Source: Pseudomonadota bacterium (lineage in GTDB: Bacteria > Pseudomonadota > Gammaproteobacteria > Legionellales > Legionellaceae). From it: a stretch of 64,000 nucleotides of DNA. Under the pieces are notes generated by a model. That model saw nothing but the letters and a program-made list of their open reading frames with translations. It did not search any database and was not told where the DNA came from. Shown here one piece after another: positions 22,054 through 28,875 of the stretch. Location of the stretch: the NCBI GenBank assembly GCA_021848965.1, contig JAJZTL010000001.1:1910-65909 (forward strand), given 5' to 3'. Both the position numbers and the translations under genes were made by a program. Within the stretch, counting starts at the first letter, position 1, and every line of letters starts with the position of its first letter.

Positions 22054-25000
22054 ATGACAAGTTGGTTTGGATATAAAAAAGGAAACCCATCTTCTAAGAT
22101 CGGAGCCAGAGTACAAGCTCCTAAGAAAGGTGGAACCAGCAGCTCATTATTTACTCATGATGACGAGGATATTCCATTTTTTAGTCTTAATGAAACTTCA
22201 TCAGCAGAAGTCAAGGTAAAACTTAAAAATCTTGGTCGTGATACTGCTGAAATTAACCTACCAAGTGACGATGATAATAGTGATGAAGAGATAGCTGTAC
22301 CGACGCACAGCACCACTTCGAGCCATTCAAACCCACACGCTAAAGCAGTAATAACGGCAGCAGTTGCAGAGGACTCCAATGAGGTCCACCTAGATACCAC
22401 TGTGAAAACAGGAGAAGACAAAACGCTTGAAGCTGTAGCATCTGATTTTACTGTTACTGAAATCAAACCACTCGCAGATCGCGTAGTTGAACAACAAATA
22501 AAGGATCAGCAAAAAAAGCCCACTGCTTTGGAGTACTTGAATTATTGCATCAATAAAAGACAATACTCTTACTCTAATTTTCTTAACGCATTTAAAGCTC
22601 TAAATGAAGGAGAGTGCTCAGATGTTGCTACTAGGATAATTCAACAAATAAATGACGCTGTTATTTTCCTCGAATCAGTAAAGGATAAAAGCTTTGCGGA
22701 AATGTCACCAGAAGAACTCGGTCAGTATTTTTTATATATTTCTGAGTTAGACCATTATTCTCAGATAATAGATCATTTTTCGTGTTTGCGTGATTATCAT
22801 TCAATACTCAATCGCTTTCCAGAATTATTAAAAGATAACGCTTTTAAGACACCTTTAAAGTCTTATCAAGCGAAGAAAGCTGCTTTTTTCAAATACATGA
22901 CAATAGTTCAACCAACAGCGTTTCAAAATTACTATGATAGTTTTTCACACGTTTATAATGCTTTATATCAATTATCTGCTATTCAAAAACTGGGAAATAA
23001 CACCCGTCGTCGTGTACGAAAAACGCAAGAAACTACATTCGACACGCTCACTAAACTCGCAAAAGAGCAACACATAACAGACGCGGTTATTGAATTGGAA
23101 TACACTCATATTCATGCTGAACTAAAAGAGCATGTAGATGACTATGAGAAAACATTTCAGTTCATTCTTGCTGAACACTATTTAAAATATAACCCTAACA
23201 ACCCAAATGCTATCACACCAGACGCATACACAAACACGTTGATTACTCTATTTGATTTTCTCGAAACACTGAAAGGTACCCGATATTCAGATTCTTATAA
23301 AAGAACAGCACTGTTTCTTTGCGCCAGCCTTTTAAACTTTATAACTGGAAGCCAAGGAAAATTTAATTGGAAGCTCTTCTTAAAACTTATTACAGAATCT
23401 ATTATTCAGAAGCTCGGAGAAAACTCAATAGAAGTAAATGAGGCAAATATAGAGCAATATTGGAGCCCAATTCCCTTCGTTCAAGCTGTTGAGTGGGAAG
23501 TAATTTCCAATAATCAAGGCTGGGATGTATACGATAGAATTGAAATTCTTAGATCTACAACAGAGTATGTTCCTGCACAAATACGCAAAGCATGTAAAAA
23601 AAGCATTGTGGCCATACAAGCTTCTGCTCTAGAAATGAAAGAACATGACGGGCAACGTCTCACCAATAATCCAGACTCTTTTACTATAATAGAATTAACA
23701 GACCGACTAGCCAGCTTTTCTGAAGATTTAAATGGCCAATTAGGCACTACACTCAATGAAGGAAACTTCTTGGTTTATGCCACGTCTATGGCAAGCTCTC
23801 GTGTTACTGGAAACACTGGCAATTTTTCTGAAGAGCGTTTGACTTATGCTGATCGGGTAAAAGAACTCCTGACACAAAAAATTACAACAGCAGTTACTAC
23901 AGTCACATCTTTATTGGATGAGCAATTGCAGCCATCTGGGAATCTAACAACAGCATTAATTGCTTTAGATTCCATATGGCTCGAGTTACGCCATTACTCC
24001 AATCTCAATGCAACAATGCATCCACGTTTTGCATGCCTGGTTAAGTTACAGAAGTTTTATACAACATATATACCGGCTATTACTAAACAATTTGAAGCTG
24101 TTTTGCCCCATTTTGATGCTGCGTTGTTAAAGAAAGATAATCTGACTGCATTTTTACCTCTTGCCCAATCATTACCCATGATGCCAGCTTTTCTCTCTCT
24201 ATTAACCTCAGAGAATAAAGGACATGACGATAGTTTATATGCAAATATTTTTAAAGAGTTAGATCCGCATTATTTAGGCTATATACAACGCGTGATTGTT
24301 TTTTATAGAGATCTTCGTGATCAATTTACTCAAGCAGAGAGGAATAAAAACTTTAGCGAAATGTATCAAATATGGTCGCTTTTGAATGCAAACTCCGAGG
24401 TAATAAATAATTTTCTTGATATAATTTTAGATCCAAAAAATAAGGCAGCTCTTGAAGAAGCAGGAATTCAATTTTATACCACGAAAATAGGCGATAAAGA
24501 GACTCCTACAGAATTAAAAATCCAAATGAAGGATCTTGCCAGTCGATTAAGAGAGGACGCTATGGTATCAGTGAGTCTCCCTGAAAACTATCAAAAAGCA
24601 ACCTCTGCCAGTAAAGCAGACAGAGAAGAGTTCTATAGTACAATTTTTCAAGCATATGAGGGACTAAAGAGCTACCATCATTCATCAGTTTATATGGTAT
24701 TTGGACAACAAGATAGAGATGTTATAGCCTTATTGAATTCCGTGAAAGAAAATATTCGCGCCAATCTGGACATAATTAAGGAACCCGCTATTCGTGTTTT
24801 GGAAGGAGAGTTTCCTAGCTTTAACAAGGAGAGTTATAATACCTTTAACACCGCTTATGAAAGTTTAATTACCGCAAAAAATCTCTGTAAAGATCCAGAA
24901 ATTTCAGCGATTATTAACGCCAGTATTGAGTCTTTTTCAAACCAAGTCAAAGCAAGATTAGACGCATTCTATGAGAGCATTACAGCAAATAATAATGCTA

Positions 25001-28000: not shown

Positions 28001-28875
28001 AACGTGCTAAAATGAAACACTCTGCCGCGGGTACTCCTTATGAACAACAAGTAAACTTTGAGGATGAACTTCAAAAACTCATTGCTAAAAAAATCCCTGT
28101 GCATGCAGTGCAGGTAGGAAATGAGACAAGTCAGACTCAGATTTACAGATCTACTGCCACTAAAACACAGGGAAAATTCCATCAACTGAATCCTCATTCT
28201 ACAACTGCAGCGGCAGAGTTAACCGATCTTGTGGTAGAGAGTGTTTTGCAAGATATCGGAGGAAATGACTATGTTAACCGCTATCGCTTTATATATCGTC
28301 CAAGTTATACTGGACCCGAAGTCACAAGAAAATCTGCCTCTATAGGAAAAAATCCGGTTGGAGTTTTTTCAAATTCTAGTACAGCGCCTCACTCGAAAGT
28401 CTCAAGCAGTACTTTTGCTTCAGTACAATTTTTTGATAGAACTCTAATACGTAAAAAATTGACCGAACAAGTGAATAAATATAGAGATCTTAGCAGCACA
28501 ACAACTCACGAGGCAATTATAGCTCGCGCACAAAAAATACTGACAAACTTAGAGGCACATGATATAACTGATCAGCAAATAAGTGACGATTATTCAGCAT
28601 GGATCAAAATGGAGCAAGCATTTAGAAAGCTGGATGCACATGTCAATAAATATAGCACTTGGGGTGCTTTGAGCCACCAAACAAGTATATCTGGCGCAAA
28701 AATAATTCTTAATCACATTAGGAATGTTGAAGGGGTATCAGACGCACAAATAAGTCTTGAATATGTGGATTGGGGACAAAAAGGTAAAGGAAACTCAGAC
28801 AGAAGCAAGCATTATGAACAGTTTGCAGAAAAAAGCTATGATATACGAAAAGATAACAACGAGCTTCGTAGATGA
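22054..28875 (+). CDS. Giant protein (~2273 aa): novel N-terminal 1200 aa + SecA-type DEAD motor + vWA/MIDAS-like domain + C-terminal tandem repeat
   Basis: ATG 22054 is preceded by GGAGA; the track start 22030 is GTG. SecA-like ordered motifs: KTGEGKS (25774-25794), YSNYLSERD, DEVD (26098-26109), VTGTLS (26593-26610), FGRGTDF (26998-27018), GRTARQGKNG (27112-). vWA-like: VILIDATSS (27589-27603), ATGGFPG, WMGDVGPN, VHAVQVG. Confidence 0.9.
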   Translation: MTSWFGYKKGNPSSKIGARVQAPKKGGTSSSLFTHDDEDIPFFSLNETSSAEVKVKLKNLGRDTAEINLPSDDDNSDEEIAVPTHSTTSSHSNPHAKAVITAAVAEDSNEVHLDTTVKTGEDKTLEAVASDFTVTEIKPLADRVVEQQIKDQQKKPTALEYLNYCINKRQYSYSNFLNAFKALNEGECSDVATRIIQQINDAVIFLESVKDKSFAEMSPEELGQYFLYISELDHYSQIIDHFSCLRDYHSILNRFPELLKDNAFKTPLKSYQAKKAAFFKYMTIVQPTAFQNYYDSFSHVYNALYQLSAIQKLGNNTRRRVRKTQETTFDTLTKLAKEQHITDAVIELEYTHIHAELKEHVDDYEKTFQFILAEHYLKYNPNNPNAITPDAYTNTLITLFDFLETLKGTRYSDSYKRTALFLCASLLNFITGSQGKFNWKLFLKLITESIIQKLGENSIEVNEANIEQYWSPIPFVQAVEWEVISNNQGWDVYDRIEILRSTTEYVPAQIRKACKKSIVAIQASALEMKEHDGQRLTNNPDSFTIIELTDRLASFSEDLNGQLGTTLNEGNFLVYATSMASSRVTGNTGNFSEERLTYADRVKELLTQKITTAVTTVTSLLDEQLQPSGNLTTALIALDSIWLELRHYSNLNATMHPRFACLVKLQKFYTTYIPAITKQFEAVLPHFDAALLKKDNLTAFLPLAQSLPMMPAFLSLLTSENKGHDDSLYANIFKELDPHYLGYIQRVIVFYRDLRDQFTQAERNKNFSEMYQIWSLLNANSEVINNFLDIILDPKNKAALEEAGIQFYTTKIGDKETPTELKIQMKDLASRLREDAMVSVSLPENYQKATSASKADREEFYSTIFQAYEGLKSYHHSSVYMVFGQQDRDVIALLNSVKENIRANLDIIKEPAIRVLEGEFPSFNKESYNTFNTAYESLITAKNLCKDPEISAIINASIESFSNQVKARLDAFYESITANNNASVEEIINCLIKLQIMDTRINVGKFVTEPGRMGMADRQVFKKYSSALIHDVLTAVLNSKFTQCNIQKLGDALQSVTGPNATEAGQLLTHPMFSSLATALRNRETAAQDIDYICGKLEENAEKNTNLISVQLKGQYGRFEEAYWERVQRGLEANTLASKEELEEILRSQVPYTDKIISVAASLFARWSVEDYKEKLRKSGLDPSAATMSEGLQADILKPHPAQILAIFRLLGMNVAAPYPNNPDIQAEVDLYIQNHLAEIKTGEGKSITLAVTAQIFALMGYDVDVACYSNYLSERDFEDFTPMFQAMGLQDNIYYGTFKQLSERQINAQHGDLRDNIGDRIRGIDGTHSAVTAATTKHIQRKKILLVDEVDVFLGKSICGDTYSLSSVFETQEAINIVLYVLANAALSTLDLDSVKAHCHKDYNTIVQRSIKGFDRILDQTILAMIDDAKIYNVDNGTFEFNDVEQKIGYRTQGHDMEYNVTYRYQTMFAYLNCYKQGKINTEQLRGKIGLLIQSGEFSYAEMIKEYDHVLGVTGTLSTLGKTEKSYLESVLQVQNFTYLPSAYTENHVEFPTDISVKCVLAKSHFATITEEIKINATSLSGGPLRPMFLFFETPEELSAYNKWLTKRNDFPGREIIFLDAQDTNEERKAKIRRATSPGAILLTTKEFGRGTDFQVFDPEINAAGGPHVIMTFLSDDIAEETQIIGRTARQGKNGTCSMVLNARQLNKKYGLQNTTPNIESYSGIELYRIINEARTKALDEQQQRNSEVNAKIKVIHDKSKALAKNLDQNSAATKSGASASSTSISTFTGVREYVFGSSSSVIPQKSTRDKEFMQTLVELNQFKAALPKRTHAENSDHHTVILIDATSSMKDLLEAVKKTVREMFTRAKTVIEQAEGDSEDRSEMVMQLVFYRNYGDDKILECSQWVRMSVDEDLEELDHFLATITATGGFPGKERYLSGLEATEAGLAYINQEVIGKNIPLKQVIWMGDVGPNLTEELPYKRAKMKHSAAGTPYEQQVNFEDELQKLIAKKIPVHAVQVGNETSQTQIYRSTATKTQGKFHQLNPHSTTAAAELTDLVVESVLQDIGGNDYVNRYRFIYRPSYTGPEVTRKSASIGKNPVGVFSNSSTAPHSKVSSSTFASVQFFDRTLIRKKLTEQVNKYRDLSSTTTHEAIIARAQKILTNLEAHDITDQQISDDYSAWIKMEQAFRKLDAHVNKYSTWGALSHQTSISGAKIILNHIRNVEGVSDAQISLEYVDWGQKGKGNSDRSKHYEQFAEKSYDIRKDNNELRR

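Follow-up and report, generated by a model that had tools for sequence, protein, structure and literature searches.

SecA is usually seen as the dedicated export motor of bacteria and plastids, in which the helical scaffold domain (HSD) with its two-helix finger, the helical wing domain (HWD) and the zinc-binding tail are the parts engaging SecY and SecB. Rea1/Midasin is a giant soluble ATPase of another kind; its C-terminal metal ion-dependent adhesion site (MIDAS)/von Willebrand factor A (vWA) domain, carried on a flexible linker, docks the substrate, and ATP hydrolysis pulls this substrate off its complex. Here we describe a gene for a very large protein that joins a SecA-type motor to a MIDAS-type vWA domain. 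It lies in a 64,000-nucleotide (nt) stretch of DNA (the window) from a Pseudomonadota bacterium of the Legionellaceae (GenBank assembly GCA_021848965.1, contig JAJZTL010000001.1, positions 1,910 to 65,909 of the forward strand), and all coordinates below refer to this window. The gene (22054–28875, plus strand) and its product are called the giant gene and the giant protein. The architecture is real and well supported, since profile searches, alignment of profile to profile, predicted structures and fold searches all agree on it, and the giant protein is a member of a large, conserved and uncharacterised family.

SecA-like domains outside the Sec pathway have been noted in protist-dwelling bacteria. 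The Legionella fallonii gene lfa2470, labelled ‘SecA DEAD-like’, stands in a list of genes acquired from eukaryotes (PMC4256840, Table 5), and SecA-like helicase-related domains are mentioned among the effectors of Amoebophilus (PMC3482391). These proteins resemble the giant protein in the setting of their SecA-like domain, and the reported phylogeny points to exchange with eukaryotes, in line with the distribution of the present family. The two papers supply a domain label alone and describe no vWA partner, architecture or function, so that membership of these proteins in the family is only a possibility. Giant proteins of Omnitrophota and Actinobacteria contain SecA_DEAD modules that lack the scaffold and wing domains and have been proposed to export themselves (bioRxiv 10.1101/2023.11.21.568195; PMC8195603). 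They share with the giant protein a divergent SecA motor of this reduced type inside a very large polypeptide, but besides enzymatic or toxin domains they have many transmembrane helices and reach up to 85,000 amino acids (aa), whereas the giant protein has neither transmembrane helices nor such Pfam domains and belongs to a family in which the C-terminal vWA is constant. Secondary SecA_DEAD proteins have also been linked to genes of type I secretion systems (T1SS) (PMC4452313); those of Kamneva et al. (2015) are accompanied by three conserved T1SS-related neighbour genes, which are absent beside the giant gene. On a plasmid of the ciliate symbiont Ca. Megaera polyxenophila (CP113870.1, 347–16024), a 5225-aa ‘SecA-like domain protein’ is encoded, followed by a 1589-aa protein. 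In this 5225-aa protein the motor is again found in mid-protein (aa ~2180–2700), and phmmer matches only motor segments (aa ~2180–2696); the family vWA profile gave no reported match at default settings. In a tblastn search of plasmids, the matches were confined to canonical SecAs and to distant SecA-like giant proteins from Rickettsiales symbionts; no vWA was detected in these giant proteins.

The SecA-type motor and the attached vWA domain

The giant gene is a single unbroken frame that runs from a GTG at 22030 or an ATG at 22054 to the stop at 28875. The ATG, which has a GGAG at 22042–22045, 8 nt ahead of it, is taken as the start and would give a product of 2273 aa (2273 codons plus stop); the public gene call (P0001; the metagenome contig is in ENA and NCBI) uses the GTG and gives 2281 aa. 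A chance open reading frame (ORF) was rejected because 2273 sense codons follow one another in DNA of 38% G+C and because the homologues are conserved. Reading of hydropathy, composition and motifs found no transmembrane segment, signal peptide or second P-loop in the giant protein, whose top 19-residue hydropathy window (1.59) falls within the motor core, and the protein appears to be soluble.

The motor, a superfamily 2 (SF2) ATPase of the SecA type, covers aa ~1196–1720 (25639–27213, plus strand, as are all segments of the giant gene given below) and consists of two nucleotide-binding domains, NBD1 and NBD2, with an insertion where SecA has its preprotein cross-linking domain (PPXD). This assignment comes from Pfam, phmmer, hhalign, the AlphaFold2 (AF2) model and Foldseek. 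In Pfam the giant protein matches SecA_DEAD (E 6.7e-13) and Helicase_C (3.3e-5). The NCBIfam models of SecA and SecA2 are matched at E 1e-15 to 1e-7, with 30–56 bits against full-length cut-offs of 725–1493, the cut-offs for full-length SecA being missed by more than 650 bits. Against PDB sequences, phmmer pairs aa 1203–1746 with residues 64–584 of B. subtilis SecA (E 1e-17), and a profile of 28 relatives matches a SecA alignment in hhalign with a probability of 99.9 and E 3e-34 over 412 columns, from Walker A through motif VI, where the match stops. The motifs stand in SecA order: Walker A TGEGKS with K1246 (aa 1242–1247; 25777–25794), Walker B/motif II DEVD (aa 1349–1352; 26098–26109), TGT (aa 1515–1517), GRGTD (aa 1650–1654) and QxxGRxxRQG (aa 1684–1693). 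The last two belong to FGRGTDF (motif V) and QIIGRTARQG (motif VI) of NBD2, which is placed at aa ~1537–1716 (26662–27201) by Pfam, phmmer, AF2 and hhalign.

Between DEVD and TGT, model secondary structure and hhalign columns delimit the NBD1 insertion of ~120 aa (aa ~1371–1491; 26164–26526). It is bordered by stem-like beta strands in the AF2 model, and its core, ‘Y.V..DKIGY’, pairs in hhalign with the SecA PPXD core ‘EYIV.DG.I.IVDE’. The Pfam model SecA_PP_bind (PF01043) is unmatched in the giant protein and its relatives, whereas true SecAs match it in the same table. The AF2 model of aa 1180–2100, made from a multiple sequence alignment (MSA) of 28 sequences with a mean pLDDT of 77.7, shows in order NBD1, the insertion, NBD2, a 53-residue helix, a disordered Ser/Thr linker and a C-terminal domain. 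When this model was compared with PDB by Foldseek, SecA and SecA2 held all of ranks 1–36 (7e-18 to 5e-10); DinG, UvrB, XPD and DEAD-box helicases formed a second tier at ~1e-8 to 1e-7. The likeness to SecA/SecA2 (B. subtilis SecA, 1M6N/1TF2; C. difficile SecA2, 6SXH) extends over the two-lobe DEAD motor with its motif order, an NBD1 insertion at the PPXD position with probable homology to the PPXD core, and a long helix after NBD2.

There are also differences from SecA. The motor is not at the N-terminus but buried within the 2273 aa and has a vWA domain attached, and the N-terminal membrane-binding segment, the HSD two-helix finger, the HWD and the zinc tail are lacking. Sequence analysis found no amphipathic N-terminus on the motor, no homology to the HSD, HWD or C-terminal tail was found in the giant protein (the hhalign match ends at motif VI), and neither SecA_SW nor SEC-C is matched in Pfam. 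The single helix of ~53 residues after NBD2 (aa ~1725–1777; 27226–27384), seen in the secondary structure of the model, occupies the position at which the SecA scaffold helix starts, without detectable sequence homology to that helix. It leads into the Ser/Thr-rich linker (aa ~1778–1805; 27385–27468), which is predicted to be disordered from its composition and from a pLDDT below 50 over model residues 594–626.

The vWA domain is placed at aa ~1838–2081 (27565–28296) by AF2, Foldseek and Pfam matches in relatives. The giant protein as a single sequence gives no significant vWA match in Pfam; VWA_4 is reached below threshold (E 0.03 to 0.004) over the beta1/MIDAS segment. Among 29 aligned relatives, Pfam assigns VWA_4 to 13 (best 2e-8), VWA_2 to seven, VWA to four, Med25_VWA to three and VWA_3 to one. 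The AF2 model of aa 1830–2100 from a 29-sequence MSA (pLDDT 84.5, pTM 0.82) has the strand-helix alternation expected of a vWA domain, and Foldseek against PDB gave 179 matches at E<=1e-3, the best being ITIH1 (1.2e-8). Among the 50 of these matches listed, most are vWA or vWA-like domains, namely those of ITIH1, TFIIH p44, integrin beta I-like, alpha2-delta, VWF A1, Sec23/24 and Rpn10. Because the Pfam matches of relatives, the AF2 fold and the Foldseek matches coincide, the assignment is firm at the level of a predicted fold. A three-sequence vWA profile searched against PDB sequences matched solely a designed protein (E 0.05), judged spurious, and it is therefore structure prediction that shows the vWA fold.

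The putative metal site contains a MIDAS-like DxTxS loop, D1846-A-T1848-S-S1850 (27589–27603), which is invariant in 139–144 of ~140–145 representatives and corresponds to invariant A3 columns. E1943, E1946 and D1971, nearly invariant in the family, are further candidate residues. Compared with the canonical MIDAS pattern DxSxS...T...D, the site would be a DxTxS variant in which E1943/E1946 stand where Thr is expected and D1971 follows beta4.

A fold search of BFVD found that the vWA part also resembles vWA domains that amoeba-infecting giant viruses (Borely moumouvirus, Megavirus courdo7 and Yasminevirus) carry in fusion with RING/ariadne-like fingers (root-mean-square deviation ~4 Å, 13–20% identity). 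These viruses are another amoeba-associated home for this type of vWA; the same search returned no virus protein with the combined motor and vWA architecture.

Much of this had been read from the DNA alone. The original prediction named a single ORF of ~2273 codons, SecA motor motifs in SecA order, a gap between DEVD and TGT of the size of the PPXD insertion, the lack of an HSD/HWD region, a vWA-like fold built around DATSS at 27589–27603 and a first ~1200 aa resembling nothing recognised, and each of these features was found by the analyses used here, the last as the lack of a significant Pfam family. In Pfam, the SecA-like part reaches significance in the giant protein itself through SecA_DEAD, the vWA part in relatives only.

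A family shared by bacteria and eukaryotes

The prediction went astray in regarding the giant protein as an orphan. An exhaustive phmmer search with aa 900–2095 against 1.84 billion cluster representatives gave 4658 matches at E<=1e-3, of which 642 reach E<=1e-30; the best 150 all exceed 280 bits, and many are 2000–3600 aa long. Of 152 proteins collected, 145 have this vWA domain according to a profile of the vWA region, usually at the very C-terminus. The family, to which no name is given here, is defined by profile A2/A4 as a motor followed by a C-terminal vWA, and the giant protein covers positions 1–802 of the 803 in A2. A word-indexed search with the full giant protein had recovered, apart from the query, a single relative of 3148 aa, and the same search with the vWA region alone gave nothing, not even the giant protein. 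As the exhaustive search found hundreds of relatives, these sparse results reflect limits of the index and not absence.

Conservation was counted over 152 representatives that are pairwise at most 50% identical. The Walker A Lys is present in 148 of 149 and the D, E and D of DEVD in 151–152 of 152. At least 94% invariance is likewise seen for the Q-motif, TGT (T/S at the first position), motif III, the Arg and Asp of motif V, the Gln and Arg of motif VI and the MIDAS residues. All catalytic and metal-site residues are thus under strong constraint, a sign of purifying selection, and this invariance argues for an active ATPase with a functional metal site in the members of the family. The conserved core comprises a helical pre-motor region, the SecA-type SF2 ATPase, the long single helix, the flexible linker and the C-terminal vWA. 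Around this core the members vary. Many relatives of ~3000 aa have an N-terminal GTPase-like P-loop (G.TGAGKST...DTPGF), matching RsgA_GTPase, AAA_22 or nSTAND_NTPase5, that is not in the giant protein, and diatom-type members have a second, canonical VWA in addition to the family vWA.

Unlike SecA, the homologues of the giant protein are also encoded in eukaryotic nuclear genomes. Members named in a profile search belong to bdelloid rotifers (Rotaria, Adineta vaga, Didymodactylos), Hexamita inflata, Tetrahymena thermophila, diatoms (Cylindrotheca), MMETSP and EukProt transcriptomes and metagenome-assembled genomes (MAGs) of Gammaproteobacteria; some are publicly named ‘helicase-related protein’ or ‘helicase carboxy-terminal domain protein’. 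When 185,579 prokaryotic species genomes were scanned, Legionellales, uncultured Gammaproteobacteria/Pseudomonadota and Chlamydiae MAGs were the only ones in which the full module turned up, a distribution that is a lower bound because the scan used two peptide patterns. A survey of orthologues had been suggested for Legionellales and amoeba symbionts; members are present in the former and also in Chlamydiae MAGs, rotifers, protists and diatoms.

Three bacterial loci were informative. One relative adjoins dnaA-dnaN-recF, another is flanked by IS21 transposase genes and by a phage integrase gene, and at a third locus (L002), beside aspS and mutH, two giant paralogues of 3148 aa (10001–19447) and 2945 aa (19456–28293) lie head to tail, both having an N-terminal P-loop with matches to ABC_tran, AAA_22 and nSTAND_NTPase5-like models. 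With such genes at their flanks, these contigs are genuinely bacterial. In an unbootstrapped neighbour-joining (NJ) tree the family is separate from SecA and SecA2, and rotifer and bacterial sequences are interleaved. The giant protein groups with P0003–P0008, of which P0005, the sole member with examined context, is on a bacterial contig. A nonribosomal peptide synthetase (NRPS) gene is directly upstream of P0005 (L051, 1–7701), and its product has 50–60% protein identity to the NRPS of the window; the presence of an NRPS in both places points to a common lineage, or to loose linkage between the two giant genes.

Other segments of the giant protein and the surrounding DNA

The first ~1150 aa of the giant protein match no significant Pfam family. 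The N-terminal ~150 aa (22054–22503) are of low complexity, rich in Ser, Thr, Asp and Glu and unconserved in phmmer even among the nearest relatives, whose alignments start at about aa 150; this part is probably disordered. In the following Pfam-less region (aa ~150–850; 22504–24600) conservation is confined to the closest clade (P0003–P0008). The pre-motor region (aa ~850–1195; 24601–25638) is more widely shared, conservation of aa 850–1150 reaching beyond that clade into many ~3000-aa relatives, and it ends with an FAxWT/PHxAQ segment (the Q-motif, Q1203) directly before the motor.

At the other end, the tail of ~178 aa (aa 2096–2273; 28339–28872), with a charged C-terminus, is unmatched in every collected relative. 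It appears to be a lineage-specific addition, since the vWA ends the protein in most relatives. Within it a unit of ~50 aa is tandemly duplicated (aa 2134–2183 and 2191–2240; 28441–28788); the two halves are 33% identical (E 1e-6), follow the pattern ‘..VNKY....H...I..A..IL......D.QIS..Y..W’ and match no known domain.

Upstream of the giant gene, the TTAAT-N6-TTAAT direct repeat TTAATATAGTATTAAT (21944–21959) is followed by TATAAT (21970–21975), both on the plus strand and ~80–110 nt before the start codon (21944–21975 in all); together they possibly form a PmrA-type box and a -10 element. The pattern predicted as a PmrA-type box is thus present, but its frequency is not above chance: the window contains three such sites where 1.2 are expected, and three or more also occur in 11 of 100 shuffles. 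Another TTAAT-N6-TTAAT site (5504–5519) lies directly upstream of the start codon of the NRPS gene, and the occurrence of such sites before both giant genes of the window is suggestive and statistically weak.

Downstream, a G+C-rich structured repeat of ~75 nt (~28920–28995, plus strand) has an inverted second copy at ~30440–30515 (minus strand). The two copies are 89% identical and bracket coaBC, and the repeat has a fold energy of -41 kcal/mol (z = -4.9). The REPIN proposed for this position is a genuine repeat that appears REP-like (REP- or MITE-like), not a classical closely spaced REPIN doublet, and it probably also serves as the terminal hairpin of the giant transcript. Rfam and tRNA scans of the whole window found nothing, and the repeat has no Rfam family. 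A 104-aa ORF at 28872–29186 (plus strand) is probably not a gene, because it overlaps the giant-gene stop codon and covers the REP-like element; the public annotation instead has a 54-aa gene on the opposite strand (28982–29146, minus strand).

The neighbours of the giant gene are ordinary chromosomal ones: upstream, a gene for a PNP oxidase and an ORF of 811 aa without a Pfam family, and downstream, coaBC and a gene for an FAD-dependent oxidoreductase; among the neighbour ORFs scanned, no T1SS or Sec gene is adjacent to it. Elsewhere the window contains dnaB, alr, the NRPS gene, yifB, nadA, gpmI and genes for an AcrB-type pump and an asparaginase. The NRPS (5522–12904, plus strand; 2460 aa) has adenylation and condensation domains, two of each, together with carrier domains and a terminal NAD-dependent reductase; as the other giant ORF of the window it was considered as a family member and rejected as unrelated. 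No significant Pfam family was found for ORFs of 811 aa (19307–21742, plus), 525 aa (16950–18527, minus), 732 aa (53402–55600, minus), 445 aa (52052–53389, minus) and 466 aa (61516–62916, plus). The first of these, encoded just ahead of the giant gene, forms a singleton cluster in a collection of 15 billion proteins. An NCBIfam scan of the 525-aa and 732-aa ORFs and of a 462-aa ORF (34069–35457) gave no match. The last of these is an AAA_14-type ATPase ORF (plus strand) with DUF4143; a further one (42928–44043, plus) has a sub-threshold AAA_14 match alone. AAA_14-type ATPases are frequently tied to mobile or defence-related loci.

What the giant protein may do

The giant protein is probably a host-interaction protein and not a part of protein export. 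In the reading that we favour, and which we judge to have about an even chance of being right, it is an ATP-driven remodeller of eukaryote type that works outside Sec export and uses its vWA/MIDAS as a tether. The MIDAS site would grasp a partner protein at an acidic residue, and the SecA-like clamp, driven by ATP hydrolysis, would grip a polypeptide and pull or thread it. The gene would be a eukaryotic-like one exchanged with hosts, and its product would most likely work at or inside a protist host and may be a translocated effector. A secreted effector that remodels host proteins had been suggested at the outset and is plausible in view of the phyletic pattern; delivery to such a host is speculation from this pattern and the extra C-terminal tail, the latter being a suggestive candidate for an export signal. 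In design, Rea1/Midasin, in which a flexible linker connects the motor to a MIDAS domain at the C-terminus, would be the closest analogue. This analogy is one of function only: the motor of Rea1 is a six-module AAA+ ring without sequence relationship to the giant protein, whose linker is Ser/Thr-rich, not Asp/Glu-rich. The alternative analogy would be regulation of an SF2 motor in cis by a vWA, as in the pair of p44 and XPD in TFIIH. A bolder form of the remodeller reading, which we put forward only tentatively, is that the family is an unrecognised, mainly eukaryotic-cytosolic branch of SecA-type unfoldases or extractors that are aimed by a MIDAS, were repeatedly traded between protists or rotifers and intracellular bacteria and are injected back by the latter as effectors.

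Several points weigh against the favoured reading. Polypeptide as the class of substrate is suggested only by SecA being the closest relative. Full-text literature searches found no paper on the motor-vWA module and no functional study of any family member; the combination is undescribed to this extent, as originally supposed, but it belongs to a large family of which related proteins have been noted in passing. The PmrA-like box lies within chance and hence is no evidence for effector status, the C-terminal tail contains no recognised translocation signal in its sequence, and no secretion-system genes, dot/icm included, were found among the scanned ORFs of the window, several of its ORFs being unscanned. 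Transfer between eukaryotes and bacteria may have run in either direction, the NJ tree is unbootstrapped, rotifer assemblies are known to contain foreign DNA, and the bacterial distribution is a minimum set by two peptide patterns. Furthermore, relatives with N-terminal GTPase- or STAND-like P-loops near insertion sequence (IS) elements or integrases fit a role in conflict or immunity as well.

Such a role is the strongest rival, and we consider it possible though rather unlikely. The protein would then be a cell-autonomous NTPase-vWA giant that senses or acts against invaders inside bacterial and eukaryotic cells and is not secreted, by analogy with giant STAND/GTPase and MoxR-vWA conflict systems. 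The ~3000-aa relatives with their GTPase-like P-loop, the relative with IS21 and phage-integrase neighbours and the tandem paralogues would suit it. However, the giant protein itself has no N-terminal P-loop, its gene is surrounded by housekeeping genes (PNP oxidase, coaBC, nadA, yifB) with no defence island, and bacterial members were found only in lineages known as intracellular. PADLOC returned no significant family for the giant protein; its match to the Dpd helicase DpdF (E 6.6e-4) could be cited for the conflict role, but was rejected as evidence of a defence system for its weakness. The motor might instead work on nucleic acids, as a helicase or translocase that the attached vWA controls in the way p44 controls XPD in TFIIH. 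The SF2 fold, the helicases that come next after SecA in Foldseek, the high rank of TFIIH p44 chains in the Foldseek matches to the vWA model and the public names of relatives all lend themselves to this idea, and p44 and XPD are both among the Foldseek matches listed. That likeness is again functional only. In TFIIH, p44 and XPD act on DNA as two distinct polypeptides, and the motor of the giant protein is far closer to SecA than to XPD: its top E-values in Foldseek are better by about ten orders of magnitude, the profile-profile match takes in the polypeptide-binding insertion at the PPXD position, and among Pfam and NCBIfam models only SecA-specific ones score well. We therefore regard a helicase as unlikely.

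An auxiliary Sec-type or self-export motor seems less probable still. SecA homology including the insertion at the PPXD position would agree with it, as would the published proposals for other giant SecA_DEAD proteins (bioRxiv 10.1101/2023.11.21.568195; PMC8195603; PMC4452313), but the HSD two-helix finger, the HWD and the zinc tail are missing, there is no transmembrane helix, signal peptide or adjacent T1SS/Sec gene, and the module occurs in the nuclear genomes of Tetrahymena, Hexamita, diatoms and rotifers, where a SecYEG-coupled role is unlikely. The notion of a newly invented, self-contained machine restricted to one lineage and without relatives was nourished by the word-indexed search and by the N-terminal ~150 aa and C-terminal tail, which are indeed unique; the hundreds of relatives of the same architecture recovered by exhaustive HMMER and profile searches refute it, and we give it next to no credence.

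The ATP-driven remodeller with a vWA tether is thus the reading that we carry forward. The interest of the giant gene comes not from uniqueness but from the size, conservation and cross-domain distribution of its family, in which the same SecA-type motor, minus the parts that engage SecY, has been permanently joined to a MIDAS-type vWA in hundreds of diverged proteins. For annotation, this means that ‘SecA_DEAD’ matches in giant proteins of symbionts should not be taken for Sec components. If the motor still acts on polypeptides, the family would represent a new class of soluble protein-remodelling machine, and it would also illustrate clearly how genes pass between protists and the bacteria living inside them.

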